This document shows positions 3,698 through 15,844 of a stretch of DNA of 24,000 nt, piece by piece. Every line of letters starts with the position of its first letter. The first letter of the stretch is position 1. Under the pieces are notes generated by a model. It saw only the letters and a list, made by a program, of their open reading frames with translations, had not been told where the DNA came from and ran no database searches. The position numbers were made by a program, and so were the translations under genes. The stretch comes from Acidobacteriota bacterium (GTDB lineage Bacteria; Acidobacteriota; Blastocatellia; Pyrinomonadales; Pyrinomonadaceae), in NCBI GenBank assembly GCA_018269075.1, contig JAFDVJ010000060.1:11079-35078 (forward strand), given 5' to 3'.

Positions 3698-3734
3698 GAA
3701 AAATCCGAAATCCGAAATCCGAAATCCGAAATCG
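3698..3734 (+). repeat. Tandem heptamer array (GAAATCC)n, left arm of a 35-nt perfect inverted repeat
   Basis: The sequence is gaaaaatcc gaaatcc gaaatcc gaaatcc gaaatcg, ending 2 nt before ATG 3737. Its reverse complement cgatttcggatttcggatttcggatttcggatttttc matches 4300-4334 over 35 nt (GATTTCGGATTTCGGATTTCGGATTTCGGATTTTT). Confidence 0.9.
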
Positions 3735-3736
3735 CC

Positions 3737-4300
3737 ATGTCCTGGATCAAAACGATACCCTTTGACGAAGCCGACGAAAAACTGCGCCGGGCGCTCGAAG
3801 CGCAGCGCGCGCTCTACCCGAAGGAATACGGAACGCCGCAGCCGCCGATTCTCGGCGACGAATCGATCGTTTCGACGCACACGCTGATTCCCGACGCGCT
3901 CTATCACGCGTTCGCGACGTTCGGCGTCCTGACGGCGCCCGATCTGCCGCTCGACCGGCGGCAGCAGGAGATGATCGCGACGATGGTCTCGGTCACCAAC
4001 GACTGCTTTTACTGACTGGTCTCGCACGCGGAGTTTCTGCGTCTCGTGACCTTCGACGACGAGCTCGTCGAAAAGCTCAAAACCGATTACAGACAAGCGC
4101 CGATCTCGGAGGCCGAACGCGTGATGTGCGACTATGTCGTGCAGCTGACGAAGGACGCGACCAGGATCACGCCCGATTATCACGTCAAAATGCGCGCCCA
4201 CGGGTTCGACGACACGGCGATTCTCCAGATCACGCTGATCGCCGCCTGGTTCAATTACATCAACCGGGTCGCGGACGCGCTCGGAGTGGGACGGGGGTGA
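3737..4300 (+). CDS. AhpD-like / carboxymuconolactone decarboxylase-family peroxidase-related protein, 187 aa, with TGA 4013-4015 read as selenocysteine (C90-x-x-U93)
   Basis: Track ORFs 3737..4015 and 4046..4300 share a frame (offset 309 = 3x103). TGA 4013-4015 is the only stop between them. The junction reads [20 protein letters not shown], matching the family motif N-x-C-x-Y-C-x-x-x-H with TGA at the second Cys. The N-terminus [21 protein letters not shown] resembles the peroxidase-related subfamily. A hairpin follows the TGA (next feature). The alternative reading is a nonsense pseudogene. Confidence 0.7.
4018..4051 (+). promoter_or_regulatory. Candidate bacterial SECIS hairpin
   Basis: Folded by hand. 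Pairs are 4018-4021 with 4048-4051 (GGUC/GACC), a U.U mismatch, 4023-4024 with 4045-4046, a 1x2 internal loop, and 4026-4031 with 4037-4042 (ACGCGG/CUGCGU, one G.U). The apical loop is AGUUU at 4032-4036. The stem starts 3 nt after the UGA and the loop lies 17-21 nt downstream. No energy calculation or covariance model was run. Confidence 0.45.
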
Positions 4301-4335
4301 TTTCGGATTTCGGATTTCGGATTTCGGATTTTTTT
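4299..4335 (+). repeat. Tandem heptamer array (GATTTCG)n, right arm of the 35-nt perfect inverted repeat, followed by a T-run
   Basis: The sequence is t-gatttcg gatttcg gatttcg gatttcg gattttt-tt-attt. It begins inside stop codon TGA 4298-4300 and ends in TTTTTTTATTT, 9 nt before hutI ATG 4345. Confidence 0.9.
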
Positions 4336-4344
4336 ATTTAGGCG

Positions 4345-5610
4345 ATGAAAGCTGATCTGGTAATTTATAATGCGCGGGTCGTTGGCGGCGCGGCTGACGG
4401 CGGGCCGAAAAAGGGTGCGGCGCTGGCCGGGCTGACGATCGTCGGGGACGGGGCAGTCTCGGTCGTCGGCGGGCGGATCGCGGCGGTCGGGCCGTCGGCG
4501 GAGATTTTGGAGCAATACGCGGCCGAAAACGCGATCGACGCGGGCGGTCGGGTCGTCGGACCGGGGTTCGTCGAATGCCACACGCACGTCGTCTTCGCCG
4601 GCGACCGGCTGAACGAATTCGAGCTCAAGATCCGGGGCGCGGATTATCTCGAAATTCTCAAGGCGGGCGGCGGGATTCTCTCGACCGTCCGGCAGACGCG
4701 GGCGGCTTCGGTCGACGAACTGGTCGCCGAGAGCCGCCGGCGGCTCGACAAAATGCTCGCGCTCGGCGTGACGACGGCCGAAGTCAAGACCGGCTACGGG
4801 CTCGACACCGAAACCGAATTGAAGATGCTGCGGGCGATCTTCGCGCTCGACGCGGCGCACGCCGTCGATCTCGTCCCGACGTTTCTGCCGGCCCACGCCG
4901 TCCCGCCGGAATTCCGGGAAAACCCGGACGCTTACGTCGATCTGATCTGCCGCGAGATGCTGCCGCGGGCGCTCGAAGAATTTCGAAATTCGAGGCTGAA
5001 TTCGCCGATTTTCGTCGACGTTTTCTGCGAGCGCGGCGCCTTCGATCTCGAACAGTCGCGCCGGGTTCTGGAAACCGCCAAAGCTCTCGGTTTCGGGATC
5101 AAGGCGCACGTCGACGAGTTTACGAATCTCGGCGGCGCGCGGATGGCGATCGGGCTCGGCGCGACGTCGGTCGATCACCTCGACGCGATTTCCGACGAGG
5201 AAATTGCGCTGCTCGCCGCCTCCGGCACGGTCGGCGTCGTCACGCCGACGGTCAATTTCAATTTCGGCTCGAAGGAATTCGCCGACGCGCGCCGGCTGAT
5301 CAACGCGGGCTGCGCCGTCGCACTCTCGACCGACTACAACCCGGGCAGCGCGCCGTGTCCGAGCCTGCCGAACGCGATGGCGATCGCCTGCCGCTATCAA
5401 AAGCTGCTGCCGGCCGAGGCCTTCAACGCCGCGACGATCAACGCCGCGCACGCCGTCGGTCTCGGCGCTCAAATCGGTTCGCTCGATGCCGGGAAACGGG
5501 CCGACATTTTGATCTTCGACACGAAAGATTATCGCGAGATCGCCTACGAATTCGGCGGCAACCCGGTCGCCGCAACAGTCAAAAACGGAATAATGGTAAA
5601 CCGTTCGTAA
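4345..5610 (+). CDS. hutI: Imidazolonepropionase (amidohydrolase superfamily), 421 aa
   Basis: Motifs seen: GFVECHTHVVFAGDR (HxH metal site), EVKTGYGL, KAHVDEF, and LSTDYNPGS with a C-terminal SLDAGKRADILIFD. Length and order are typical of HutI. Antisense ORF 4255..5472(-) is a shadow. Confidence 0.92.
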   Translation: MKADLVIYNARVVGGAADGGPKKGAALAGLTIVGDGAVSVVGGRIAAVGPSAEILEQYAAENAIDAGGRVVGPGFVECHTHVVFAGDRLNEFELKIRGADYLEILKAGGGILSTVRQTRAASVDELVAESRRRLDKMLALGVTTAEVKTGYGLDTETELKMLRAIFALDAAHAVDLVPTFLPAHAVPPEFRENPDAYVDLICREMLPRALEEFRNSRLNSPIFVDVFCERGAFDLEQSRRVLETAKALGFGIKAHVDEFTNLGGARMAIGLGATSVDHLDAISDEEIALLAASGTVGVVTPTVNFNFGSKEFADARRLINAGCAVALSTDYNPGSAPCPSLPNAMAIACRYQKLLPAEAFNAATINAAHAVGLGAQIGSLDAGKRADILIFDTKDYREIAYEFGGNPVAATVKNGIMVNRS

Positions 5611-5614
5611 ATTT

Positions 5615-7144
5615 ATGCAGGAAGTTGTTTTAGACGGCGAAAGCCTGACTTTCGAAGAGGTCGTCGCCGTGGCTTACGGCCGGCCGGACGCGCCGCGCGT
5701 GCGGTTGTCGGAAAGAGCCGCCGTCAACGTCGGCCGCGCCGCCGAGGCGGTCGAAAAATTGTTGAAGCGGGGCGAGATCGCCTACGGCATCACGACCGGT
5801 TTCGGGGCGTTCAAGGACCGGATTATCTCGGTCGAGGAGGTCGAGAGGCTCCAGCGGAACATCGTCGTCAGCCACGCCGTCGGCGTCGGGAATCCGTTCG
5901 ACGAGCCGACGACGCGGGCGATTATGCTGATCCGCGCGAACACGCTGGCCCGCGGTTTTTCGGGCATCCGGCCGGAAACGCTCAATCTTTTGCTCGAGCT
6001 GCTCAACCGCGGCGTCCATCCGCTGATCCCGGAAAAGGGCAGCCTCGGGGCGAGCGGCGATCTCGCGCCGCTCGCGCATATGGCCTGCGTGATGATCGGC
6101 GAAGGCGAAGCGCTCTTAGGCGGCGAAAAGATGCCGGCCGCCGATGCGCTCGCGAGAGCCGGCCTGGCGCCGGTCAAGCTGGCCGCCAAAGAGGGTTTGG
6201 CGCTGACCAACGGCACGACGATTATGACGGCCGTCGGGCTGCTCGAAACGCATAACGCCAAGCGGATGGCCGAACTCGCCGATCTGGCGGGCTGTCTGAG
6301 CCTCGAAGCGCTCCACGGGACGACGCTCGCCTTCGACGAGCGGATTCACGCCCTGCGGCCGCATCCGCGTCAGGTGCAGTGCGCCGAAAATCTGCGGTCG
6401 ATCCTCGAAGGCAGCGAGTTTACCCGGAAATTCGACGCCTCGAACGTCCAGGACGCCTACACCCTGCGCTGCATCCCGCAGGTCCACGGCGCGTGCCGCG
6501 ACGCGGTCGCCTACGCCGACTGGATGGTCAAGCTCGAGCTCAACGCCGTGACCGACAACCCGCTCATCTTCTGCGACGAAAACTGCGACGAGATCGAGGT
6601 CATATCGGGCGGCAATTTTCACGGCGAGCCGCTCGCGCTCGCTTTCGATTATCTCGCGATCGCGCTCTCGGAGCTCGGCAACATCAGCGAGCGGCGGATT
6701 ATGCGGCTGACCGACGAGGCGTCGAACGCGCACGTGCTGCCGGCGTTTCTGACCGAAAAGGGCGGCCTCAATTCGGGTTTTATGATCGTCCAGTACACGG
6801 CCGCCGCGCTCTGCACCGAGAACAAGATCCTCGCGCATCCGGCGGCGGTCGATACGATCCCGACCTCGGCCAACGTCGAGGATCACGTTTCGATGGGCGC
6901 GACCGCGGCGCTGAAACTGCGGCAGATCGCCGAAAATCTCGAACGGATTCTCGGTCTCGAGCTGTTCGCGGCGGCGCAGGGCGTCGATTTTCGCCGCCAG
7001 CGGATCGGCGCCGAGAAAAAGCTCGGCCGCCGGACGCAGCCCGTTTACGAGCTGATTCGCGCGAAAGTCCCGTTTATCGAGGAAGATACGCTGATGTACC
7101 CGCACATCGAAGCGGTCCGCGCGCTGATCGACGAAATCGTCTGA
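5615..7144 (+). CDS. hutH: Histidine ammonia-lyase, 509 aa
   Basis: GSLGASGDLAPLAHM contains the Ala-Ser-Gly triad that forms the MIO cofactor. Aromatic amino acid lyase motifs follow (NGTTIMTA, YTLRCIPQVHG, SGGNFHGEP, SANVEDHVSMG). It starts 4 nt after the hutI stop. Confidence 0.95.
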   Translation: MQEVVLDGESLTFEEVVAVAYGRPDAPRVRLSERAAVNVGRAAEAVEKLLKRGEIAYGITTGFGAFKDRIISVEEVERLQRNIVVSHAVGVGNPFDEPTTRAIMLIRANTLARGFSGIRPETLNLLLELLNRGVHPLIPEKGSLGASGDLAPLAHMACVMIGEGEALLGGEKMPAADALARAGLAPVKLAAKEGLALTNGTTIMTAVGLLETHNAKRMAELADLAGCLSLEALHGTTLAFDERIHALRPHPRQVQCAENLRSILEGSEFTRKFDASNVQDAYTLRCIPQVHGACRDAVAYADWMVKLELNAVTDNPLIFCDENCDEIEVISGGNFHGEPLALAFDYLAIALSELGNISERRIMRLTDEASNAHVLPAFLTEKGGLNSGFMIVQYTAAALCTENKILAHPAAVDTIPTSANVEDHVSMGATAALKLRQIAENLERILGLELFAAAQGVDFRRQRIGAEKKLGRRTQPVYELIRAKVPFIEEDTLMYPHIEAVRALIDEIV

Positions 7145-7326
7145 GGCCGGAAAACGGATGGATCGGCTGACACAACTTTTCGGGGACGATCTGGTTTTCG
7201 GGGGGGCGTCGCCCGGTGGCGGTTTTGAGGCCGTGATGCGGGTGGCGGAAAAAATCGGATTTGCGGGAATAAAATAAAACCGACGCGGGATAAAATTGGC
7301 GTAAATCATAGACGGAGTGAGTTGAA

Positions 7327-7875
7327 GTGCAGACATCAGCGGTTACGCTAAGCGGTGAAAAAATTCAGGTCGGCAATTGCGTCGCGGTTTTGCGGCAGGG
7401 CGTCGAGCTTCTCGAAAAGCTCGACGACGGGCTTTACGCGAAGGCCGGCGGGCCCGAAAATTCGTCGGTCGGCGGTCATTTTCGCCATAATCTCGATTTC
7501 GTGACAAATTTTCTCGACGGTCTGGAAAAAGGGAAGATCGATTACGCCGCGCGCGAAAGAGATCCGCGCGTCGAAAACGACCGGGCTTGCGCCGCCGCGC
7601 GATTCCGGGCGGCGATCGACAGGCTCGAAAACCTCGGGGAAACGGTTTTCGACGCGAAAATCGTCGTCCGGTCGGAGACGAATCCGGCTCTCTGGTGCGA
7701 TTCGTCGGCCGCGCGGGAGCTCGAATTTTTGCAGAGCCACACGATTCATCATTACGCGCTGATCCGTTTCAAACTGGCGGCCGAGGGCTTTCAAACCCCG
7801 CCGGAATTCGGCGTCGCGCCTTCAACTCTCGAATATTGGAAAGGCCTTGAGGACAGGGCCGGGGAGCAACGATGA
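7327..7875 (+). CDS. DinB-like (DinB_2/YfiT-type four-helix-bundle) protein, 182 aa
   Basis: GTG start at 7327 with GGAG (7314-7317) 9 nt upstream. His-rich motifs GGHFRHNLDF and QSHTIHHYALI fit the DinB/YfiT metal-binding His triad spacing. The stop overlaps the next start as ATGA (7872-7875). Confidence 0.6.
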   Translation: MQTSAVTLSGEKIQVGNCVAVLRQGVELLEKLDDGLYAKAGGPENSSVGGHFRHNLDFVTNFLDGLEKGKIDYAARERDPRVENDRACAAARFRAAIDRLENLGETVFDAKIVVRSETNPALWCDSSAARELEFLQSHTIHHYALIRFKLAAEGFQTPPEFGVAPSTLEYWKGLEDRAGEQR

Positions 7876-8279
7876 ATATCTTGAGTTGGATTTTGCGGAT
7901 CGTCGCGGCGATCATTCTGCTGCAGACGCTGTTTTTCAAATTTACGGGCGCCGAGGAATCGAAGTATATTTTTTCGACGCTGATGGGCGACAACGAAGCG
8001 GTCGGCCGGATCGGTTCCGGCGTCGTCGAGCTGCTCGCGGTCGTGCTGTTGTTCGTTCCGGGGACGGCGTGGCTCGGGGCCGCGCTCGCGCTCGGGACGA
8101 TGGCCGGCGCGATTTTCAGTCATCTGACGAAGCTCGGCGTCGTCGTCAAGGACGACGGCGGGCTGTTGTTCGGGCTCGCGATCACGGTTTTCGCGGCGAG
8201 CTTCGCGGTGCTGCTGATTCACCGCCGCGAAGTGCCGGTCGTCGGGCCGCTGCTTTTCGGACAGGAAACCGGGCAATGA
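7872..8279 (+). CDS. DoxX-like small integral membrane protein, 135 aa
   Basis: It has four hydrophobic helices. The N-terminus MNILSWILRIVAAIILLQTLFFKFTGAEES is typical of DoxX-like proteins. GGGGAG (7861-7866) lies 5 nt upstream of the ATG. ATGA overlaps occur at both ends (7872-7875 and 8276-8279). Confidence 0.7.
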   Translation: MNILSWILRIVAAIILLQTLFFKFTGAEESKYIFSTLMGDNEAVGRIGSGVVELLAVVLLFVPGTAWLGAALALGTMAGAIFSHLTKLGVVVKDDGGLLFGLAITVFAASFAVLLIHRREVPVVGPLLFGQETGQ

Positions 8280-10078
8280 GGATTGTGGGGCAAATCAGGG
8301 ACAAACGCCGGTGGCTCGCCGCGGCCGGCGTTTGTCTTTTGGCGGGCCTCGCGGTTTATTCGGTCTTCGAATTTCTGACGCCGGCCGATTATGAAACTCT
8401 GAAGGCCGGCCTGCTCGCGCCCGAAAGCCTCGGCGTCGAACGGTTTTCGGGACTCGCGGTCTTTTTCATTCTCGCGGCGGCGACGCTCGTCAGCGAGGAT
8501 CTGACCTGCATCGCGGCGGGCGTGCTGGCGGCGCAGGGGAAAATCGGGCTCTCGCTCGCGATCTCGAGCTGCGCCTTCGGGATCTTCGTCGGCGACATAC
8601 TGCTTTTTCTGGCCGGCCGCTTTTTCGGGCGCAGGGCATTAAATAACAGGTTTTTCAATTATTTCGTCAGCGAAAGCGCGTTCGAGCGGAGCTCGCGCTG
8701 GCTCGAACGGCAGGGAATGAAGGCGGTTTTCATCAGCCGTTTCGTGTTCGGCCTGCGGCTCCCGCTCTATTTCGCGGCCGGCGTGCTGAAAACTTCGTTC
8801 CGGCGCTTTACGCTCTATTTCTCGGCGGCGGTCGCGATCTGGACGCCGATTCTCGTCGGCGCGACCTCGCTGCTCGGCGCCGAGGTCGTCAAAAATTCGC
8901 TTTTCAACCGGAGTCTCTGGCTCGGCATCCTCGTTTTCGCGGCGGCGGCGTTTTTCGGCGTGCGGCTCGTCCAGCAGCTGCTGACGTGGAAGGGCCGGCG
9001 GATCCTGCTCGGCCGGATCAAGCGGCGGTTCATCTGGGAATTCTGGTCGATCCGCGTCTTTTATCTGCCGGTCGTCGTGTACGTGCTGTGGCTGATGGTC
9101 CGCCGCCGGAGCCTGACGGTTTTTTCGTGCGCCAATCCGGCGATTCCGGCGAGCGGGTTCGCCGGCGAGTCGAAGGCCGCGATTCTCGACGGACTCGGCC
9201 GGTCGGCGGCGGCGCAGCCGTTTTCACTGAAATACCTGCTGCTGCGGGACGATCAGGCGGCCGCCGAACGATTGCAAGCGGCGACGGATTTTATGAATGC
9301 CGGCGGTCTTTCGTTTCCGGTCGTCGTCAAGCCGGATGTCGGCGAACGCGGGACCGGCGTCGTGATCGCGAAAGATCCGGCGAAGCTCGAAAAGGCGGTC
9401 GCCGACGCGAAAGGCGATCTGATCCTGCAGGAATTCGCGCCCGGCGTCGAAACGAGCGTGTTTTACTGCCGTTACCCGGACGATGAACGGGGCCGCATCT
9501 TCTCGATCACCGAAAAACGCTTCCCGACGGTCGCCGGCGACGGGCGGCGGACGCTCGAAGAGCTGATCCTCGCCGATCCGCGGGCCGTCTGTCTCGCCGC
9601 GAAATATCTCGAACGCAGCGCCGACCGGCTCGAAACCGTGCCCGGGGCGGGCGAAATCGTCCCGATCGTCGACATCGGCACGCATTCGCGCGGTGCGATT
9701 TTTCGCGACGGCGGCTGGATGAAAACGCCGGCGCTCGAGGAGACGATCGACCGGATCTGCCGCGGTTTCGAAGGGTTTTATTTCGGCCGGTTCGACATCC
9801 GCGCCGGCTCGTTCGAGGAATTCGCCGCCGGGGAAAATTTCCGGATCGTCGAGCTCAACGGCGTGACCAGCGAATCGACCAACATCTACGACCCGCGCTA
9901 TTCGCTGTTCGCGGCGTACCGCATTTTGTTCAGCCAATGGCGGATCGCCTTCGAGATCGGCGCCGCCAACCGCCGCCGCGGCGTCCGGCCGGCGTCGCTC
10001 GCGGAACTGATCGGCCTCGCGCTCGGACGGCCCGCCCGGCGGCCGGAAACCGTTCTTCAGGATGCCGAATGTGCGTAA
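8276..10078 (+). CDS. Fusion protein, 600 aa: N-terminal DedA/VTT (SNARE-associated) membrane domain plus C-terminal ATP-grasp ligase domain
   Basis: Track ORF 7847..10078. The real start is taken as ATG 8276 (MRIVGQIRDKRRWLAAAGVCLL), because the upstream part overlaps DoxX out of frame and is Arg-rich. The DedA-like core spans about aa 57-235 (LVSEDLTCIAAGVLAAQG, GDILLFLAGRFFGRR, FISRFVFGLRLPLYFAAGVLK). An extra helix follows (WEFWSIRVFYLPVVVYVLWLM). The ATP-grasp-like part spans about aa 285-565 (FPVVVKPDVGERGTGV, LILQEFAPG, FYFGRFDIRA, FRIVELNGVTSESTNIYDP). Confidence 0.75.
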   Translation: MRIVGQIRDKRRWLAAAGVCLLAGLAVYSVFEFLTPADYETLKAGLLAPESLGVERFSGLAVFFILAAATLVSEDLTCIAAGVLAAQGKIGLSLAISSCAFGIFVGDILLFLAGRFFGRRALNNRFFNYFVSESAFERSSRWLERQGMKAVFISRFVFGLRLPLYFAAGVLKTSFRRFTLYFSAAVAIWTPILVGATSLLGAEVVKNSLFNRSLWLGILVFAAAAFFGVRLVQQLLTWKGRRILLGRIKRRFIWEFWSIRVFYLPVVVYVLWLMVRRRSLTVFSCANPAIPASGFAGESKAAILDGLGRSAAAQPFSLKYLLLRDDQAAAERLQAATDFMNAGGLSFPVVVKPDVGERGTGVVIAKDPAKLEKAVADAKGDLILQEFAPGVETSVFYCRYPDDERGRIFSITEKRFPTVAGDGRRTLEELILADPRAVCLAAKYLERSADRLETVPGAGEIVPIVDIGTHSRGAIFRDGGWMKTPALEETIDRICRGFEGFYFGRFDIRAGSFEEFAAGENFRIVELNGVTSESTNIYDPRYSLFAAYRILFSQWRIAFEIGAANRRRGVRPASLAELIGLALGRPARRPETVLQDAECA

Positions 10079-10794
10079 TCTTCTTTGCTTATCATCACCA
10101 TCCCGACTTTCCGCTGGTCCTGCTGGCCAACCGCGACGAGTTTTACGACCGCCCGACGGCCGCCGCCGGTTTCTGGGAAGACGCGCCCCGCATCTTCGCC
10201 GGCCGCGATCTGTTGTTCGGCGGGACGTGGCTCGGGATTACCGAAACGGGCCGTTTCGCGGCCGTCACCAACTACCGCGATCCGCGAGCGCCGAAGGGCG
10301 GCTCGTCGCGCGGGGCGCTGGTCGGCGATTTTTTGGCGGGCGACGTTTCCACGGAAGAATACCTGCACGACGTCCGGCGGCGCGCCGGCGAATTTTCGGG
10401 CTTTAACCTGCTCGTCGGCGAGCTGCGGCCGGAAAAGCAGACGCTCGGCTATTTTTCGAACCGCGGGAACGATGTCGAAATGCTCGGGCCGGGCGTTTAC
10501 GGGCTCAGCAATCACCTGCTCGACACGCCGTGGCCGAAGGTCGAAAGCGGCAAAAATCGTCTCCGGGCGCTGCTCGCGGCGGCCGAACCGGACAAGCGGG
10601 AAATGTTCGAAATCCTGCGCGACCGGACGACGGCCGCCGACCGCGATCTGCCCGAAACCGGCGTCGGCCTCGAACGCGAGCGGCTGCTCTCGTCGATTTT
10701 CATTGAGACGCCGGTTTACGGCACGCGCTCGTCGAGCGTCGTGCTCTTCGGGCGCGATTACCGGATTTCGCTCGACGAGCGCGTCTACCGTTGA
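10069..10794 (+). CDS. NRDE-family (DUF833 / TANGO2-like) protein, 241 aa
   Basis: Track ORF 9937..10794. The start is taken as ATG 10069, giving MCVIFFAYHHHPDFPLVLLANRDEFYDRPT. That has the N-terminal Met-Cys and the literal NRDE motif of the family. AGGA (10059-10062) lies 6 nt upstream. It overlaps the preceding gene by 10 nt. Confidence 0.85.
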   Translation: MCVIFFAYHHHPDFPLVLLANRDEFYDRPTAAAGFWEDAPRIFAGRDLLFGGTWLGITETGRFAAVTNYRDPRAPKGGSSRGALVGDFLAGDVSTEEYLHDVRRRAGEFSGFNLLVGELRPEKQTLGYFSNRGNDVEMLGPGVYGLSNHLLDTPWPKVESGKNRLRALLAAAEPDKREMFEILRDRTTAADRDLPETGVGLERERLLSSIFIETPVYGTRSSSVVLFGRDYRISLDERVYR

Positions 10795-10801
10795 CCAACC
10801 G

Positions 10802-10830
10802 TTGGTTTTACGGGCGGAAAGCGTTATAAT
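10802..10830 (+). promoter_or_regulatory. Candidate sigma70-type promoter: TTGGTT-N17-TATAAT
   Basis: The -35-like TTGGTT is at 10802-10807, followed by an exact 17-nt spacer and a consensus TATAAT at 10825-10830. It sits in the 76-nt gap between the NRDE stop and ATG 10871. This is a pattern match only. Confidence 0.4.
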
Positions 10831-10870
10831 TTCGGTGAACGAACGTCAACGTATTTTCGCGCCCGTATTT

Positions 10871-11761
10871 ATGGAATTTCAAAAGCATACCGTCTTATTG
10901 CTCTGTCTGATCGTCGCCTTTCTGTCATTTGCCGTTCCGCTGTTCGGTCAGGAAGCGAACCTGCGCTTCGTGGTCGAAGAAAAACTGGCCAAGGCCGAGG
11001 TCTACCGCGACGGGAAAAAGACGACCGGCATCCGTCTCGAAGAGGTCTGCGACGTCGACAACGACGTCGTCGCGGCGCGCGTTTTTCGCGATTACGGCGC
11101 GATCTTCATCGCCGCGCCGGAAGTTCGTTTCCCGGTCAAATGCGTGTTCGCCGGCGATTCCGAGGTGCAGATGTATCAGTCGACCGCCAATCCGGTCACG
11201 AAAAACGTCGGCGGCACTTCGATCACGCTCCAGGAACCGGCGATGAACGCGCTGCTCGAAGCGGTCGACGAAGCGCGCAAAAAAAATCTCCGGATCTCGC
11301 CGCGCGGCGGTTCGATCGCGGCCGCCCGTTCGTATCAGGACACGGTCGATCTCTGGTATTCGCGGTTCAATCCGGGGCTCGGCCACTGGACCGGTCTCGG
11401 CAAGATCCCCCGGCGCGACGCCGACGCGGTCCGCGGCTGGGGCATCCAGAAACAGGTCGCGAAGGTGCTCGAATGGGAGGCGAAGGGCTGGTACTTCAGT
11501 ACCGATTTCAGCAAATCGATTCTATATTCGGTGGCCGCGCCCGGCGCTTCGCAGCATCTTTTTATGGTCGCGCTCGACGTCGAACAGTTCGCCAGCAAGC
11601 CCGTCCGCGAGATACTCGCGCGGCACGGCTGGTTTCAGACGGTCAAAAGCGATCTCCCGCATTTTACGTATCTCGGACTCGACGAAAGCCAGCTGCCGGC
11701 GCGCGGCCTGAAGCCGGTTTTCGTCGGCGGCCAGAAATTTTGGATCCCGAATCTCGATTGA
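10871..11761 (+). CDS. Secreted LAS/M15-like metallopeptidase (VanY / L-Ala-D-Glu peptidase-type motifs), 296 aa
   Basis: Track ORF 10085..11761. The start is taken as ATG 10871, giving signal-peptide-like MEFQKHTVLLLCLIVAFLSFAVPLFGQEA. SQHLFMVALD (H-x6-D) and SDLPHFTY (D-x-x-H-F) match the Zn-ligand pattern of M15 peptidases. It is roughly 45% identical by eye to 13390..14058. Confidence 0.7.
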   Translation: MEFQKHTVLLLCLIVAFLSFAVPLFGQEANLRFVVEEKLAKAEVYRDGKKTTGIRLEEVCDVDNDVVAARVFRDYGAIFIAAPEVRFPVKCVFAGDSEVQMYQSTANPVTKNVGGTSITLQEPAMNALLEAVDEARKKNLRISPRGGSIAAARSYQDTVDLWYSRFNPGLGHWTGLGKIPRRDADAVRGWGIQKQVAKVLEWEAKGWYFSTDFSKSILYSVAAPGASQHLFMVALDVEQFASKPVREILARHGWFQTVKSDLPHFTYLGLDESQLPARGLKPVFVGGQKFWIPNLD

Positions 11762-11785
11762 CGAATCGGGTGGGAGGTGAAAAGG

Positions 11786-13084
11786 ATGATTTGCCCGAAA
11801 TGCAGCGGTTTGAACGACGATACGAATATTTTCTGTATCATCTGCGGCGAAACATTTCATTCTTCCACAAATCTCCCGTCGACGGTGATGGGCCCGCAAA
11901 ATCCGCTGGAAACGATAATGCCGACGCAGATTTTTCAGCCGCCGCCCGCCGCCGGCGAAGAGTTTTTATCGACGCCGACCGTCTTCGGCGTCCCGCCGAA
12001 TTATAACCAGTCGCAGGCCGGCTTCAACCAACCCCCGCCGGGGTTCGATCAGTCGCAGGCGGGATTCAACCAGTCGCAGGCGAATTTCAATCAGTCGCAG
12101 GCGAATTTCAATCAGTCGCAGGCCGGCTTCAATCAGTCGCAGGCCGGCTTTAATCCGTCATTCGTCGGGTTCAACCCGGTGATTCCGCAGGTCCAGCCGG
12201 AGCCGCCGAAGAGCCGCTGGGTTTTGTGGCTCGGCCTCGGCGGCGTCTTCGTGATCCTGCTCGGCTGCGGGATCGCGGCGGCCGTGTTTTTCCTCTACCG
12301 GCCGACCGGCCCGGCCGAGGTTCTGCCCGATCATCTCGGTTTGTTTTTCCAGAACGGCGATAAGACGGCGATCACCGAGCTCGCCAAAAAGGATTATGCG
12401 AACGCGCTCGACGGCAAGGACAAGCTGCTCAAGGACGAATCGCTGCCCGAGGTCGAGAGCCGGCCGAACCTGATCCTCTATTCCGACGGCAAGGACATCC
12501 CGGTCGGCGATCTCAAGCTCGTCCAGCTCGACACGATCAAGAACGACGGCAAGCTCAAACAGGTCGAGTTCAAGGTGACGCCGGTCGATGGCAAACCCGA
12601 GATGAAGCGGCTCTGGCTGACGGAAAATCTGGCCAAAGGGAAATACGCCTTCGCGCTTTTCGACGGGTTTCTCGACGAGGGAAAACATAAGCTCTGGGCT
12701 TTTCAGGTGAAGAATTCCGACCGGACCGACAATGCCAGTCTGCTCAAGGAGCTAACGGTCGCGCCGAAATCGAAGGACGAGAAGAAGGAAGAAAATTCGA
12801 ATACCGCGACGCCGTCGCCGAGCGCGACCGCGACGCCGAAACCGACGGTCGCCCCGCCGGTCGGGGCGCGGACGGCCTACGCCGGCACCAACAACGTGCT
12901 GGTGCGCTCCGCCCCGAGTCTCGACGCGGCCAAAGTGAACGCTCTGAGGAACGGTCAAAAGGTTTACATTCTCGGTTTTTCGGACAATTACGATTACTGG
13001 AACGGTCTGGAAGGAAACTGGGCCCACGTGCAGACCGAAGGCGGGCAGCGCGGGTGGGTTTTCTCGCCGCTCCTGAGATATTGA
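11786..13084 (+). CDS. Bitopic membrane protein, about 432 aa: N-terminal zinc ribbon, N/Q-rich heptad repeats, one TM helix, extracytoplasmic domain, PT-rich linker, C-terminal SH3b domain
   Basis: ATG 11786 lies 8 nt after GGGAGG (11772-11777). The track used GTG 11777. CPKC..x..CIIC forms a zinc ribbon. Eight NQSQAGF-type repeats follow, then TM helix WVLWLGLGGVFVILLGCGIAAAVFFLY. The linker is ATPSPSATATPKPTVAPP. The C-terminus YAGTNNVLVRSAPSLDAAKVNALRNGQKVYILG...WAHVQTEGGQRGWVFSPLL is bacterial SH3-like. Confidence 0.75.
   Translation: MICPKCSGLNDDTNIFCIICGETFHSSTNLPSTVMGPQNPLETIMPTQIFQPPPAAGEEFLSTPTVFGVPPNYNQSQAGFNQPPPGFDQSQAGFNQSQANFNQSQANFNQSQAGFNQSQAGFNPSFVGFNPVIPQVQPEPPKSRWVLWLGLGGVFVILLGCGIAAAVFFLYRPTGPAEVLPDHLGLFFQNGDKTAITELAKKDYANALDGKDKLLKDESLPEVESRPNLILYSDGKDIPVGDLKLVQLDTIKNDGKLKQVEFKVTPVDGKPEMKRLWLTENLAKGKYAFALFDGFLDEGKHKLWAFQVKNSDRTDNASLLKELTVAPKSKDEKKEENSNTATPSPSATATPKPTVAPPVGARTAYAGTNNVLVRSAPSLDAAKVNALRNGQKVYILGFSDNYDYWNGLEGNWAHVQTEGGQRGWVFSPLLRY
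12005..12172 (+). repeat. Eight tandem 21-bp in-frame repeats encoding NQSQAGF-type heptads
   Basis: Units start at 12005, 12026, 12047, 12068, 12089, 12110, 12131 and 12152. They encode NQSQAGF, NQPPPGF, DQSQAGF, NQSQANF, NQSQANF, NQSQAGF, NQSQAGF, NPSFVGF. The central units are near-identical at the DNA level (cagtcgcaggc[cg]...ttcaat). Confidence 0.9.
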
Positions 13085-13098
13085 TTTATCGAGGAATA

Positions 13099-14061
13099 AT
13101 GAACATCATCAAGAAAAATATCGTTTGCTTCGCGGTCTTATGCGCGGTCTCTCTGACCGGCGCCTGCTGGTCGGCCGACTCCAACACCAAAAGACGGTCG
13201 AACAGCCCGTCCGCGTCGCCTTCCGGGTCGGTTTCGCCGGGCGGCACGACCGATCCGAAAACAAAGAATAATCAAGGAGATCCCAACAGCAAAGTGAACA
13301 ATTCGCCCGACCAAACGCCGAAAAGCGGCGGTTTCGACGGCAATCTGCCGGACGGTTTTCAGAAGCCGACCGATTCCGTCGGCCAGCGTGTTTTCAAGGA
13401 ATACGGCGCGATGTTCGTCGCCCGGGGCGTGACGCCGCCGAACAAGGTTCTGTTCAAGGACGAATCCGAGGTCTCCGCTTATCAATCGAGCGTCCAGAAA
13501 TCGACCGAATCGATCGGCGGCATTCAGGTCGTCCTCCAGACGGCGGCGATGAACGCTCTCAAAGAGGCGATCGAGGAGGCGAAGGGCCAGAATCTATCGA
13601 TCACGCCGCGCAACGCCGATTCGTCGGTCCGCACCTATCAGCAGACGGTGACGAACTGGCAGAGCCGTGTCGATCCCGGGCTGACCTACTGGGTCGGCAA
13701 GGGCCGGATCTCGAAGGAAGACGCGAGCCGGATCAAGGGCCTGCCGATCGATCAGCAGGTCGTCGAGGTTCTCAAGTTAGAGGAACAGGGCATTTACTTT
13801 GCTGCGGGCAACGCGAAGACGATTCTGTATTCGGTCGCGCCGCCGGGAACTTCGCAGCATCATTCGATGCTCGCGCTCGACGTCGCGCAGTTCGGCGATT
13901 CGAAAGTGCGGGCGGTGCTCGCCCGGCACGGCTGGTTTCAGACGATTCCCTCGGACGAGCCGCATTTTACCTATCTCGGCGTCGCCGAGAGCGAACTGTC
14001 GAATCTCGGGCTGAAAAAGGTCGTCAGCAACGGCAAGGACTTCTGGGTTCCGAACATTTAG
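13099..14061 (+). CDS. Probable lipoprotein, paralogous LAS/M15-like metallopeptidase, 320 aa
   Basis: ATG 13099 has GAGGA (13091-13095) upstream. The track started at 13054. The N-terminus is MNIIKKNIVCFAVLCAVSLTGAC (lipobox-like LTGAC), followed by an S/P/N-rich linker. The domain carries SQHHSMLALD (H-x6-D) and SDEPHFTY (D-x-x-H-F). Confidence 0.7.
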   Translation: MNIIKKNIVCFAVLCAVSLTGACWSADSNTKRRSNSPSASPSGSVSPGGTTDPKTKNNQGDPNSKVNNSPDQTPKSGGFDGNLPDGFQKPTDSVGQRVFKEYGAMFVARGVTPPNKVLFKDESEVSAYQSSVQKSTESIGGIQVVLQTAAMNALKEAIEEAKGQNLSITPRNADSSVRTYQQTVTNWQSRVDPGLTYWVGKGRISKEDASRIKGLPIDQQVVEVLKLEEQGIYFAAGNAKTILYSVAPPGTSQHHSMLALDVAQFGDSKVRAVLARHGWFQTIPSDEPHFTYLGVAESELSNLGLKKVVSNGKDFWVPNI

Positions 14062-14077
14062 CCGGACGCCGAAAACC

Positions 14078-15844
14078 TTATTCGGCCGGCGCCGCGAACC
14101 GGTAATCGAGCTCTTCGACGAGCAGCCGGCCCTCGGACTTTTTCGTGATCTCGATCCGTTCGAGGCCGCCGGCGAGCTTGAGCAGACCGTCGATATTCCG
14201 GGTAAAGAAATAATCCGGCCCGTCTGAAAAGTTGTCGATCGCCTCGATCCGCGCAAAGACCGGTGTGAACGATCGGGCCGCTTCCTTCGGCCGGATGACG
14301 GTCAGGGCGGCGAAATCGCCGGCCGGCGATTCCGAACCGGCCGGCGCGTTGAGAATCGCCGTCAGCAGTTCTTCGTTGTTCGAAAAGATCAGAAACTCAC
14401 CGCGAACCGCATAAAATATCGCCCGCCCGAGCGCCGGAAATTCCAATTTTCGCGCGTCCGCCCCTTCAACCGAAAAATCGCCCCAGCGAAACGAGTTTTC
14501 CGGACGGCCGGCGGTCAGCCGCCGGGCGGCCGCGGCGGCGATCCGCGTTTCGAGCTCCGGGCGGTCGAGCCGGCCGGCCGATCCGAGGGCGAGAACGAGC
14601 GCCCGGCGGTTTTCGAAAAACGCGGGGTCGTCGAGCCTCGCCGGCGATTCGATGCGAAGCCCGGCTTTCGGCACGGTATTCGCCATAACCCCGGCAAAAT
14701 CCGGCCGCTCGTCTTTGTCGTCGGCGAGCGCCGGCATCTCGTCATCCTCCGATTCGTCGACGGATTCGTTGAAATCGCCGCCGAGATAGGAAAAGCTGTC
14801 GCTCGTCTCCCAGTCGGAGAAATAATGCCGGGATCGCGTGGTTTTTTCGTCCGGCGCGGCTTCGGGCGATCCGAAAAGGATGTCTTCCAGCGATTTATTC
14901 AGCTTCGCCGCCGGCATCGTTTCGATTTCGTAAAACGGCGCGTCGGCCGGAACGAACCGCCCGAGTCCGGCCGCGGCCCGGCGGTCGACGGCCGGGCCGG
15001 ATTCCGGTTTGGCGGTCAAAAAGACCCGCTTTTCGACGATCGCGTCGGCCCGCAGATCCAGATCGATCATCCCGGCGCGCAGATTCGCGAGCCGTTTGAC
15101 GTCGCCCATCAGCCAGTAATGCCTGAAATACCAGTCGTCGTTGAGCTTTTTCTGGTTGAGCCAAACCGTCGCCGTCTGCGGCTTGATCCGGGCGGCCGTC
15201 GAGATGAAATCGGGATCGGCTGAAAGCCGGTTGCGGGGCGTTTTGCCGCGCAGGTTGTCGATCGTCTGGAGGAAATATTTTTCCGAAGTGGCGACGATCA
15301 GCCGGCCCGCGACGCTGGCGAACAGGATCTTCTGCTTCTGCCGCTGGCGGTCGACCTCGATCTCCTTTGAATAGGCCCGGGTTTCGGAATCGATCCCGAT
15401 CTCTTCGAAATCGGCCTGCCGCGAGAAAAGGCTGGTCGCGAGAATCTTTTCCTCGCTCATCGGCGCGACGAACACGAACTCCATCTTCCCGATGTCGTAA
15501 ACGGCCAGCGCGGCGCTGTTCTCGCTCAGATTCGCGGCCAGATCGAGATCGGGAAAGATGCTCGTCCGGTCGAAAATCTCGCCCGCCCGCTCGACGAGCT
15601 TGAGAGCGAGATGCCGTTTGCCGAAATCGTCGAAGTTCTCGCTTTTCAGATAAGCGGCGCGGGTTTCGGATTTCCGCCAGGTCTCGATCAGTTCCGGGAG
15701 ATTATTGATCTGAACGTAGATCAGCGCCTCGCGGGGAAAATCGTCGGCCGGCGCGAAGTCGCCCTTCGGCCGCGAGAGGCCGGCGATCATCAGGACGGCG
15801 GCGACGAATAAGATCATCATTGTTCCGAACATCATTTTCTTCAT
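14078..15844 (-). CDS. N-terminally anchored or secreted protein of unknown function, 588 aa
   Basis: The N-terminus is MKKMMFGTMMILFVAAVLMIAGLSRPKGD, a signal or anchor. GAGG lies 7 nt upstream of the ATG and overlaps the stop of the preceding gene (9-nt gap). I recognise no catalytic motif. There is an acidic stretch ESVDESEDDEMPALADDKDE. Composition is not shadow-like. Confidence 0.7.
   Translation of the reverse strand: MKKMMFGTMMILFVAAVLMIAGLSRPKGDFAPADDFPREALIYVQINNLPELIETWRKSETRAAYLKSENFDDFGKRHLALKLVERAGEIFDRTSIFPDLDLAANLSENSAALAVYDIGKMEFVFVAPMSEEKILATSLFSRQADFEEIGIDSETRAYSKEIEVDRQRQKQKILFASVAGRLIVATSEKYFLQTIDNLRGKTPRNRLSADPDFISTAARIKPQTATVWLNQKKLNDDWYFRHYWLMGDVKRLANLRAGMIDLDLRADAIVEKRVFLTAKPESGPAVDRRAAAGLGRFVPADAPFYEIETMPAAKLNKSLEDILFGSPEAAPDEKTTRSRHYFSDWETSDSFSYLGGDFNESVDESEDDEMPALADDKDERPDFAGVMANTVPKAGLRIESPARLDDPAFFENRRALVLALGSAGRLDRPELETRIAAAAARRLTAGRPENSFRWGDFSVEGADARKLEFPALGRAIFYAVRGEFLIFSNNEELLTAILNAPAGSESPAGDFAALTVIRPKEAARSFTPVFARIEAIDNFSDGPDYFFTRNIDGLLKLAGGLERIEITKKSEGRLLVEELDYRFAAPAE

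Follow-up and report, generated by a model that had tools for sequence, protein, structure and literature searches.

Four overlapping genes in a 24,000-nucleotide stretch of Acidobacteriota DNA (the window; GCA_018269075.1, contig JAFDVJ010000060.1, positions 11,079 to 35,078) raise the question of whether a DinB-like protein, a DoxX-like protein, a DedA/VTT::ATP-grasp fusion and an NRDE/TANGO2-family protein form a functional unit, and if so what this unit does. An earlier note, made from the sequence alone, described them as a single translationally coupled cassette and inferred a membrane-associated pathway that ligates and possibly hydrolyses an amide-linked small molecule or lipid head group, plausibly tied to thiol/redox homeostasis and to an AhpD-like selenoprotein gene upstream. 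What the note saw in the sequence is confirmed by our analysis (Table 1), whereas its interpretation is only partly supported; the inference that the four genes form one unit is among the supported parts. The genes stay linked across many soil Acidobacteria, where enzymes resembling those that make ornithine-type amino-acid lipids are frequently found nearby, so this is most likely an undescribed module that modifies the head group of a membrane aminolipid. This places a bacterial relative of the human disease protein TANGO2 in a testable lipid context.

Table 1. Features of the four-gene cassette, numbered from the first nucleotide of the window.
Positions	Strand	Feature	Length or residues	Start, overlap and upstream signal
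7327-7875	+	DinB-superfamily protein	182 aa	GTG start; SD-like GGAG at 7314-7317
7872-8279	+	DoxX-like small membrane protein	135 aa	ATGA overlap with DinB stop at 7872-7875; SD-like GGGGAG at 7861-7866
8276-10078	+	DedA/VTT::ATP-grasp fusion protein	600 aa	ATGA overlap with DoxX stop at 8276-8279; SD-like AGGAAA at 8263-8268
8501-8866	+	VTT/DedA core domain	residues 76-197	
8996-9109	+	Positively charged juxtamembrane segment with invariant aromatic motif, between the last transmembrane helix and the ATP-grasp; candidate lipid-substrate entry site (inferred)	R241-R242, G246, W254-E-F-W257, F262-Y-x-P265	
9143-10045	+	ATP-grasp ligase domain	residues about 290-590	
10069-10794	+	NRDE/TANGO2-family protein, begins Met-Cys	241 aa	ATG at 10069 and upstream TAA at 10076-10078 give a 10-nt overlap (10069-10078); SD-like AGGA at 10059-10062
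10802-10830	+	Candidate promoter for the next gene (10862-11761)		TTGGTT, 17-nt spacer, TATAAT at 10825-10830

Each SD-like motif sits 5-9 nt before its start codon, and an independent gene caller applied to a separate assembly of the same DNA (locus L084) gives the same four products. The candidate promoter that the note placed after the cassette has a perfect -10 element, but its -35 matches only 3 of 6 positions and a consensus scan did not call it, which is weak evidence that marks the end of the cassette only tentatively. All four domain assignments hold. In Pfam searches, DinB_2 scores 25.3 bits against a cut-off of 24.8, VTT scores 53 bits against a cut-off of 33.9, with a RimK-type ATP-grasp core at 25.3 bits, and TANGO2 scores 246 bits. 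DoxX scores 21.7 bits, just below its cut-off of 23.6, but 21 of 23 orthologues match DoxX and 18 match MauE, with W6, Q18-F24, H84 and D95 invariant.

Four-base ATGA overlaps are common in operons and prove little alone; what exceeds chance is the conserved linkage in other genomes. In 48 genome loci and 23 metagenome loci with enough flanking sequence, an OlsB-like N-acyltransferase gene lies within 4.5 kb of the ATP-grasp gene in 37 and 16 loci, respectively (75% of the 71), and the matching counts are 36 and 17 for DinB (75%), 30 and 12 for NRDE (59%), 24 and 9 for DoxX (46%), and 18 and 12 for PlsC-like genes. More than 40 different arrangements keep the same components, locus GC ranges from 0.32 to 0.72, and other flanking families are not conserved. 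Related genomes are not independent samples, however, and the HMMs used were built from the same loci. Twenty-two loci share the order of the window, DinB>DoxX>(ABH)DedA-ATPgrasp>NRDE (ABH, alpha/beta hydrolase), and 17 of these have an OlsB-like gene directly after NRDE. In the other main type, OlsB-PlsC-DinB-NRDE-ABH::DedA::ATPgrasp genes abut or overlap as one operon. The lack of conserved linkage outside this genome had been named beforehand as grounds for rejecting the cassette, and this was not what we observed.

Fusion and fission of the same components were also found. DedA, NRDE and ATP-grasp are separate adjacent genes in locus L081 and in seven metagenome loci, with NRDE inserted between DedA and ATP-grasp, while one family member, P0309, is a predicted NRDE::TM::ATP-grasp fusion. 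An N-terminal alpha/beta hydrolase is added in 69 of the top 150 family representatives. The copy in the window is a reduced form, as it lacks both this hydrolase domain and the adjacent OlsB-like gene found in most relatives, neither of which could be seen from the window alone. The window and its closest relatives (loci L001, L002 and L165) have no OlsB-like or OlsA-like gene within the sequence available, which means that for this genome the link is by orthology only, and about a quarter of related loci show no acyltransferase nearby. NRDE is not obligatorily tied to the module, since in locus L166 an NRDE orthologue stands alone after hutH, without the other three genes.

The ATP-grasp domain belongs to a distinct family that does not fall into Ddl, RimK or any other curated family, and the assignment to a characterised housekeeping family that had been named as the other ground for rejection was not observed either. 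Pfam models cover only about 55 residues of its ATP-binding core. An AlphaFold2 model of the fusion protein (mean pLDDT 86) features a helical membrane part at residues 1-280 and an alpha/beta ATP-grasp at about 300-570. Across 81 family members K352, D507, E526 and N528 are invariant, as are the motif positions of the juxtamembrane segment, and R505 is nearly invariant. The juxtamembrane segment is retained in stand-alone ATP-grasp proteins such as P0120 and that of L081. The best Foldseek matches are cyanophycin synthetases, GshF and Ddl at 12-20% identity, and phmmer against the PDB finds CphA2 at E=0.0014. These nearest structures are carboxylate-amine ligases that act on amino-acid or peptide carboxylates.

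This bears on a rival reading in which the cluster serves aminolipid or N-acyl amino acid turnover and remodelling rather than head-group extension. NRDE, the alpha/beta hydrolase and an HExxH protein would deacylate the lipid, and the ATP-grasp would re-activate a free fatty acid as acyl-phosphate and re-ligate it to an amino acid, as reported for acyl-histidine synthesis by an ATP-grasp enzyme in Legionella (ATP-grasp-made acyl-histidines are cited in PMC11631085). The extended cluster does hold three hydrolase-type components (ABH, NRDE and an HExxH zincin-like protein), the window type lacks an adjacent OlsA-like gene and the window lacks OlsB as well, and the histidine-utilisation genes hutI and hutH lie directly upstream in the window, L001, L002 and L165. 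However, the hut adjacency is limited to these closest relatives and is not seen in the other roughly 155 loci, PF13535, the family cited for the Legionella enzyme, scores only 15.8 bits over 36 residues, and the nearest structural relatives do not activate fatty acids. OlsB-like acyl-ACP-dependent N-acyltransferases are already present in most clusters, so a second N-acylation route would be redundant. We consider this reading unlikely, although it is the strongest of the alternatives.

A cell-envelope function unrelated to aminolipids is also conceivable, in which the DedA domain would handle a polyprenyl phosphate carrier and the Ddl-like ATP-grasp would ligate amino acids on a lipid-linked peptidoglycan or polysaccharide precursor. 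The best NCBIfam hit of the DedA part is the undecaprenyl-phosphate transporter UptA (E=9.5e-13), Ddl and VanA structures are among the Foldseek matches, and two weak VanY/M15-like genes and an SH3 protein follow the cassette in the window and occur in L001, L002, L165 and L166. Yet the UptA score is 48.6 bits against a cut-off of 250, so the protein is not an equivalog, and the VanY-like neighbours occur only in the closest relatives and remain in L166, where DinB, DoxX and DedA::ATP-grasp are absent, which indicates that they do not travel with the module. No peptidoglycan or glycosyltransferase genes recur in the 160 loci examined, while OlsB-like and OlsA-like genes do, and this function appears improbable.

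The NRDE protein is a clear TANGO2-family member that scores 138 bits against the human TANGO2 structures 8sv7 and 9bwa, with C2 and N21-R-D-E24 invariant. Its predicted structure (pLDDT 90) matches TANGO2 with a TM score of 0.87, and the next fold neighbours are NAAA, isopenicillin-N acyltransferase, bile salt hydrolases and acid ceramidase. One study reports that TANGO2 binds acyl-CoA through the NRDE motif (PMC11867700).

The DinB protein has H54, H138, H141 and H142 invariant in 40 orthologues, and these are the positions of the DinB metal site when aligned to PDB 3dka. The thiol/redox reading of the earlier note would combine a DinB thiol transferase, the DoxX oxidoreductase complex, a GshF-like ligase and an Ntn amidohydrolase with the upstream selenoprotein. 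The DinB fold and DoxX do have thiol-related members, and the GshF ATP-grasp domain (3ln6, 3ln7) is among the best structural matches. We found no evidence for this reading, as the DinB protein matches no curated thiol-transferase family (no NCBIfam hits) and its only PDB match is an uncharacterised DinB-like protein. No cysteine, glutamate-cysteine ligase or sulfur genes recur in 160 loci, and the conserved partners are lipid acyltransferases. The link to the AhpD-like gene is likewise not supported, since that gene sits between 38-nt inverted repeats and is absent from L165, the closest syntenic relative. A low-molecular-weight thiol pathway is therefore the least likely of the alternatives that we considered.

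In contrast, the amide-linked lipid head group that the note also proposed is strengthened by the identity of the recurrent acyltransferases. Their best NCBIfam hits are OlsB (129 bits, full length) and OlsA (147 bits, full length), and Pfam assigns Acetyltransf_5 (PF13444) and Acyltransferase (PF01553), the two families of the two-step aminolipid pathway (PMC11631085). Modification of a phospholipid head group is a further possibility, in which the ATP-grasp would join an amino acid to the amine of PE or the carboxylate of PS, DedA would flip the product and the alpha/beta hydrolase would remove the modification. The architecture of hydrolase, lipid-transporter-like domain and ligase in one membrane protein parallels MprF synthase-flippase fusions and their hydrolase partners, and PE and PME are major lipids of Blastocatellia (PMC12816986). 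This does not explain the OlsB-like and OlsA-like genes inside the same operon, no phospholipid-synthesis genes recur in the loci, and we regard it as doubtful.

A mechanism is proposed where the cassette is a reduced copy of a conserved accessory module of aminolipid (ornithine-lipid-type, N-acyl amino acid) metabolism, a reading to which we assign a probability of roughly 55%. An OlsB-like N-acyltransferase, often with an OlsA-like O-acyltransferase, would make an N-(acyloxy)acyl amino acid lipid in the inner leaflet of the cytoplasmic membrane; in this genome the corresponding genes lie outside the window, if present. The DedA::ATP-grasp protein would be held in the membrane by its DedA domain and extra helices, while its cytoplasmic ATP-grasp domain would use ATP to phosphorylate a carboxylate, most likely the free alpha-carboxylate of the amino-acid head group, which resembles the peptide C-terminus used by its nearest structural relatives, cyanophycin synthetase and RimK. 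Joining of an amine or amino acid would then give an amidated or dipeptide head group, and the DedA domain may translocate the lipid across the membrane, as the flippase domain of MprF does. The NRDE/TANGO2 protein, a Cys-N-terminal-nucleophile fold whose nearest non-TANGO2 neighbours cut N-acyl amide bonds of lipids, would hydrolyse or transfer an N-acyl or aminoacyl amide in the same pathway, for editing, recycling or head-group exchange, whereas the DinB metalloprotein and the DoxX membrane protein enter this model only as conserved partners without an assigned step. The analysis establishes the gene structure, the domain identities, the intact catalytic motifs, the conserved linkage and the patterns of fusion and fission, but the substrate, the reaction, the topology and the roles of the proteins are inferred from genomic context and fold similarity alone. 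In particular, a hydrophobic helix at residues 259-276, between a very basic loop and the ATP-grasp, leaves the topology unresolved, and the published polar-lipid lists for cultured Blastocatellia that we read mention PE, PME, PC and DGTA, not aminolipids (PMC12816986). An orphan activity of the proposed type does exist, as ATP-dependent transfer of taurine to the carboxyl of ornithine lipid has no known gene (PMC12971839).

We found no paper describing this system, and among the closest known systems is the OlsB/OlsA two-step ornithine-lipid pathway, whose acyltransferases are the best curated matches of proteins often encoded in the same operon as the module. Their scores are far below the equivalog cut-offs (129 versus 350 and 147 versus 300), so the head-group amino acid may differ, and none of DedA::ATP-grasp, NRDE, DinB or DoxX is part of any aminolipid pathway or modification in the reviews that we read, which list hydroxylation by OlsC/D/E, N-methylation and taurine transfer (PMC11631085, PMC12971839). 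The orphan taurine transfer that yields cerilipin, and the extension of glycine lipid, an intermediate of the Ser-Gly lipid, to Ser-Gly and Orn-Ser-Gly lipids, need an ATP-dependent carboxylate-amine ligase acting on a membrane aminolipid, which is what a membrane-anchored ATP-grasp beside OlsB/OlsA would be expected to do. The genes for these activities are not identified, and the lipids were described in Gluconobacter/Gluconacetobacter and Bacteroidota, not Acidobacteriota (PMC12971839).

MprF, an aminoacyl-phosphatidylglycerol synthase fused to a flippase, is analogous in logic, as one membrane protein combines a head-group-modifying enzyme with a lipid-translocating domain and an alpha/beta hydrolase is associated, but there is no sequence relationship, MprF uses aminoacyl-tRNA rather than ATP-grasp chemistry, and its flippase domain is not DedA. 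The cyanophycin synthetase G domain, RimK and GshF are the best structural and sequence matches of the ATP-grasp domain; they share the ATP-grasp fold and a conserved Lys/Asp/Glu-x-Asn ATP-Mg site and extend a terminal carboxylate with an amino acid, although curated scores are far below cut-off (cyanophycin synthetase 23 versus 850, RimK 19 versus 143) and the domain described here is membrane-tethered with a unique conserved juxtamembrane motif. The NRDE protein shares 33-34% identity with the TANGO2 crystal structures, and its next fold neighbours, the Cys-Ntn enzymes NAAA, acid ceramidase, bile salt hydrolase and isopenicillin-N acyltransferase, all cut or transfer N-acyl amide bonds; however, no catalytic activity has been shown for any TANGO2-family protein, and the study that reports acyl-CoA binding states that acyltransferase activity was ruled out (PMC11867700). 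Finally, the Ngg/AsnO pathway for N-acetylglutaminylglutamine amide makes a soluble osmolyte, not a lipid, its TIGR03103 model gives only a weak hit (17.6 bits against a cut-off of 569) and NRDE is not a class II amidotransferase, but this pathway couples a GNAT N-acylation to an ATP-grasp that adds a second amino acid, alongside an N-terminal-Cys amidotransferase, which is the same chemical logic as an OlsB-like GNAT, an ATP-grasp and a Cys-Ntn-fold protein.

The window has a GC content of about 61%, and its four co-directional ORFs sit where the earlier note had placed them, with overlaps of 4, 4 and 10 nt at the three junctions and an SD-like motif 5-9 nt upstream of each start, so the observation made in that note is correct. 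An independent gene call on another assembly of the same DNA (locus L084) gives the same four products, and the arrangement satisfies the sequence criteria for a translationally coupled operon, with co-transcription inferred. The NRDE protein is 100% identical to an NCBI 'Acidobacteria bacterium' MAG protein on a 99.6-kb contig (P0121). The promoter that the note had proposed for the next gene has a perfect -10 but a weak -35, and it was not called by a consensus scan. The longest ORF in the frame of the 600-aa protein is spurious and reads through the DoxX gene in another frame; over-extended calls of this kind probably explain proteins of 716-750 aa among the database representatives (P0345, P0374, P0377 and P0382), which we had considered as new N-terminal fusions and rejected.

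Coordinates of features in the window
Feature	Coordinates	Strand	Description
Inverted repeat, first arm	3699-3736		38 nt, (AAATCCG)n heptamers
AhpD/CMD-like ORF	3737-4300		candidate selenoprotein gene
In-frame TGA	4013-4015		Cys-Phe-Tyr-TGA (CxxU-like) context
Inverted repeat, second arm	4296-4333		38 nt, 97% complementary to the first arm
hutI	4345-5610		upstream of the cassette
hutH	5615-7144		upstream of the cassette
SD-like motif	7314-7317		GGAG, precedes the DinB-like start
DinB-like gene	7327-7875		182 aa, GTG start
Spurious ORF	7847-10078		743 aa, TTG start at 7847
SD-like motif	7861-7866		GGGGAG, precedes the DoxX-like start
DoxX-like gene	7872-8279		135 aa
DinB/DoxX junction	7872-7875		ATGA
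SD-like motif	8263-8268		AGGAAA, precedes the DedA::ATP-grasp start
DedA::ATP-grasp gene	8276-10078		600 aa
DoxX/DedA::ATP-grasp junction	8276-8279		ATGA
SD-like motif	10059-10062		AGGA, precedes the NRDE start
NRDE/TANGO2 gene	10069-10794		241 aa
DedA::ATP-grasp/NRDE junction	10069-10078		10-nt overlap
-10 of the proposed promoter	10825-10830		TATAAT
Secreted protein, weakly VanY/M15-like	10862-11761		paralogue of 13054-14061
Protein with C-terminal SH3_3 domain	11777-13084		435 aa, zinc-ribbon-like N-terminus, tandem 'QSQAGFN' repeats
Secreted protein, weakly VanY/M15-like	13054-14061		paralogue of 10862-11761
Protein with no family match	14078-15844	minus	588 aa
TPR-rich protein	15854-23338	minus	2,494 aa; preceded by a VIT/VWA protein in another assembly (locus L083)

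To determine whether the linkage is conserved, we scanned one genome per GTDB species and found 235 relatives of the 600-aa protein, of which the best 80 loci (48-62% identity) were kept; nearly all are Blastocatellia/Pyrinomonadaceae MAGs and a few are labelled as other phyla, although MAG taxonomy labels are unreliable. The ORFs of these loci were clustered, an HMM was built for each recurrent family, and the families were mapped on all six frames; a second, independent set of the best 80 metagenome loci (GC 0.32-0.72) was mapped in the same way. Among loci with enough flank (48 genome and 23 metagenome loci), the families found within 4.5 kb of the ATP-grasp were DinB in 36 and 17, NRDE in 30 and 12, DoxX in 24 and 9, and DinB, DoxX and NRDE together in 22 and 9, respectively. 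Related genomes are not independent samples and the HMMs were applied to the loci from which they had been built, but 22 loci other than the window keep its exact order, DinB>DoxX>(ABH)DedA-ATPgrasp>NRDE, and more than 40 distinct arrangements retain the same components, whereas other flanking families are not conserved. An absence of conserved linkage, which the note had named in advance as grounds for rejecting its proposal, was therefore not what we found.

Analysis of these loci revealed partners that could not be seen from the window alone. The most frequent is a GNAT of roughly 270 aa of Pfam family Acetyltransf_5 (PF13444), present in 37 of 48 genome loci and 16 of 23 metagenome loci (53 of 71), and it is often accompanied by a PlsC-type acyltransferase (PF01553), present in 18 and 12 loci (30 of 71). 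Their best curated matches, over the full length, are the ornithine-lipid enzymes OlsB (129 bits) and OlsA (147 bits), both below the NCBIfam equivalog cut-offs; these two Pfam families define the two-step aminolipid pathway (PMC11631085). In most relatives the DedA::ATP-grasp protein is about 880 aa and carries an N-terminal alpha/beta hydrolase (ABH), and among the top 150 representatives of the family 69 are ABH-DedA-ATPgrasp, 66 are DedA-ATPgrasp and 13 are ATP-grasp alone. Two main layouts are observed. One is OlsB-PlsC-DinB-(NRDE)-ABH::DedA::ATPgrasp-(HExxH protein), with abutting or overlapping genes, and the other is the type found in the window, DinB-DoxX-(ABH)DedA::ATPgrasp-NRDE, where a convergent OlsB-like gene lies directly after NRDE in 17 of the 22 loci. 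The first cluster occurs in contigs across a very wide GC range (loci L161, GC 0.32; L117, GC 0.44; L126 and L131, GC 0.72), and the module therefore probably extends well beyond Acidobacteriota. The HExxH protein of the larger clusters is a conserved uncharacterised protein of about 230 aa next to the cluster (loci L003-L006, L010, L016-L024, L077-L078 and others) with an invariant A-H-E-x-x-H motif, weak M48/SprT-like Pfam hits and no solved relative; it is probably a zincin-like amidase belonging to the extended cluster, and it is absent from the window. In OlsB-PlsC type loci (L013, L016-L018, L020-L022, L031, L045, L051 and L091) a conserved PhaR(-)/SDR/phasin trio of polyhydroxyalkanoate-related genes follows the cluster, and the NCBIfam hits of the ABH domain include intracellular PHA depolymerase.

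The window holds a reduced copy, which lacks the ABH domain and has no OlsB-like or OlsA-like gene in 24 kb; the same is true of its closest relatives, loci L001, L002 and L165. A search for the remainder of the 99.6-kb source contig recovered only short Logan contigs of 15.6 and 7.8 kb. The cassette is therefore associated with aminolipid synthesis by orthology and is not itself such a cluster. The chromosomal site shows modular gain or loss: L002 (6407-10500) has hutH-DedA::ATP-grasp-NRDE without DinB or DoxX, and locus L166 has hutI-Uma2-hutH-NRDE-M15-like-SH3-M15-like without DinB, DoxX or DedA::ATP-grasp. A functional link to hutI and hutH was considered but rejected, as the adjacency occurs only in the closest relatives. 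The trio of two weakly VanY/M15-like proteins and an SH3_3 protein downstream of the cassette is conserved in L001, L002, L165 and L166. Fission and fusion of the components also occur. In locus L081 and in seven metagenome loci, DedA and ATP-grasp are separate genes with the NRDE gene inserted between them, while the representative P0309 (722 aa) is a predicted NRDE/TANGO2::transmembrane::ATP-grasp fusion with no DedA core. The P0309 contig was not among the metagenome hits (best 50% identity), so this fusion rests on one predicted protein. A further representative, P0370 (773 aa), is a predicted high-GC protein in which a helical-repeat N-terminal region of roughly 440 aa is fused to the same ATP-grasp.

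In the predicted structure of the DedA::ATP-grasp protein (pLDDT 86), residues 1-280 are helical membrane segments, with the topology around residues 259-276 unresolved, and residues about 300-570 form the ATP-grasp. The VTT domain (PF09335, residues 76-197) scores 53 bits against a cut-off of 33.9 and is all-helical with high confidence in the model, which places the protein in the DedA/VTT family, but the score for the undecaprenyl-phosphate transporter UptA, a DedA subfamily, is 48.6 bits, below the NCBIfam equivalog cut-off of 250. Membership of the ATP-grasp superfamily is supported by 262 Foldseek matches in the PDB at E<=0.001, every listed top match being an ATP-grasp ligase, by a Pfam RimK core at 25.3-26.7 bits against a cut-off of 21, and by the ATP- and Mg-binding residues, of which K352, D507, E526 and N528 are invariant and R505 is nearly invariant in 81 sequences. 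A juxtamembrane W-E-F-W...F-Y-x-P motif is also invariant. The best structural matches are cyanophycin synthetases (E=3e-9) and the GshF ATP-grasp domain, followed by Ddl and VanA, at 12-20% identity, and the best PDB sequence hit reaches only E=0.0014 over 90 residues. The protein does not fall into a characterised family (NCBIfam scores against cut-offs: cyanophycin synthetase 23.4 bits against 850, RimK 19.3 against 143, archaeal Ddl 15.9 against 500), and Pfam models cover only about 55 residues, so clean membership of a housekeeping family, the second ground for rejection named in the note, is likewise not borne out. A polyprenyl or cell-wall role is considered unlikely, because the weak UptA, Ddl and VanY-like hints do not travel with the module. 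The family is sizeable, with 2,545 clusters at 50% identity at E<=1e-3 and 1,062 at E<=1e-30, and is common in soil Acidobacteriota, yet the relatives recovered with the ATP-grasp domain alone bear only the names 'hypothetical', 'VTT domain-containing' or 'DedA'.

The NRDE protein is a clear member of the TANGO2 family (246 bits in Pfam against a cut-off of 22.6; 138 bits against human TANGO2). Its model (pLDDT 90) has a TM score of 0.87 and 33-34% identity to the human TANGO2 crystal structures 9bwa and 8sv7, and the next matches are NAAA, isopenicillin-N acyltransferase, penicillin V acylase, bile salt hydrolases and acid ceramidase. Cys2, which follows the initiator Met, and N21-R22-D23-E24 are invariant in both paralogue groups. 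TANGO2 binds acyl-CoA through the NRDE motif (PMC11867700), and its crystal structure suggested a Cys2 hydrolase (PMC12359130).

The DinB-like protein scores 25.3 bits for DinB_2 against a cut-off of 24.8, and of 40 orthologues 24 match DinB_2 and 15 match DinB; H54, H138 and H142 are invariant and align with the His positions of PDB 3dka, which is consistent with the DinB metal triad, the fold being predicted from sequence alone. It matches no curated thiol S-transferase dependent on bacillithiol or mycothiol (0 NCBIfam families at E<=0.01), no characterised relative was found, and its only PDB profile hit is an uncharacterised DinB-like protein (E=0.005). The DoxX-like protein scores 21.7 bits against a cut-off of 23.6, while of 23 orthologues 21 match DoxX at E<0.01, 18 match MauE and 12 match DoxX_2, so that clan-level membership is likely; it is highly conserved, with 64% mean column identity. 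The note had inferred a pathway plausibly tied to thiol/redox homeostasis and pointed to the AhpD-like selenoprotein upstream. We regard this thiol/redox reading as the least likely of the readings considered, since no supporting gene recurs. The AhpD-like ORF is bracketed exactly by the 38-nt inverted repeats, and the syntenic relative L165 has only a 70-bp gap at this position, which suggests an inserted cassette or a repeat-flanked selenoprotein gene, and a link to the module was rejected. The interpretation offered in the note is thus only partly supported: the four genes and their domain assignments hold, with DoxX just under its cut-off in the window, but the thiol/redox framing does not find support.

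The genomic context points to aminolipid metabolism, and we put a probability of about 0.55 on an aminolipid-associated module for head-group modification. In this view, an OlsB-like enzyme, with or without an OlsA-like enzyme, makes an N-acyl amino acid lipid, and the membrane-tethered ATP-grasp most plausibly phosphorylates the free carboxylate of the head group and couples an amine or amino acid to it, following the chemistry of its nearest relatives; this specific amidation step is less certain. The DedA domain would anchor the enzyme and may translocate the lipid, NRDE would hydrolyse or transfer an N-acyl or aminoacyl amide, and the ABH and HExxH proteins of the larger clusters would add ester and amide hydrolysis, while DinB and DoxX are left unexplained. 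The gene structure, domain identities, conserved catalytic motifs, linkage and patterns of fission rest on the sequence data, but the substrate, the reactions, the removal of Met1 from NRDE and its catalysis, the topology and the individual roles are all inferred from context and fold similarity, without experimental or lipid data, and the polar-lipid lists that we consulted for cultured Blastocatellia do not mention aminolipids. Remodelling with fatty-acid activation by the ATP-grasp remains an unlikely alternative, and an MprF-like modification of phospholipid head groups is more doubtful still.

A more far-reaching possibility, which the data do not exclude but which we consider rather unlikely, is that the DedA::ATP-grasp family is the missing class of ATP-dependent ligases that extend or amidate the carboxyl of bacterial aminolipids to give dipeptide or amidated head groups, with the NRDE/TANGO2 protein as its catalytic partner, acting as a Cys-Ntn N-acyl-amide hydrolase or transacylase on these lipids. 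This would give the first defined substrate class for the TANGO2 family and the first DedA domain with an identified lipid cargo. The biochemical function of TANGO2, whose loss causes a severe human metabolic disorder, is unsettled, with haem transfer, acyl-CoA binding and a hydrolase role all proposed; a bacterial orthologue that sits in an N-acyl-lipid gene cluster, and in places is inserted between its partners or, in one predicted protein, fused to the ATP-grasp, offers a tractable system in which to address an N-acyl-amide hydrolase or transferase activity. DedA proteins are abundant and their cargo lipids are largely inferred, so a natural fusion to an enzyme points to a cargo.

Literature searches on DedA and ATP-grasp proteins in aminolipid metabolism, on OlsB together with NRDE/TANGO2, DinB and ATP-grasp proteins, and on DedA fusions found no paper, in the library searched, that links these families or describes this system. 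Aminolipids are widespread phosphorus-free membrane lipids whose head-group extensions (taurine amide, Ser-Gly and Orn-Ser-Gly) still lack identified enzymes, and a membrane-tethered ATP-grasp genetically tied to OlsB/OlsA is a concrete candidate class. Reactions of exactly the proposed type are orphan: taurine transfer to the carboxyl of ornithine lipid is ATP-dependent and its gene is unknown, and glycine lipid is an intermediate of the Ser-Gly lipid (PMC12971839). The component folds are all known, and the logic of the module resembles that of known lipid-modification systems.
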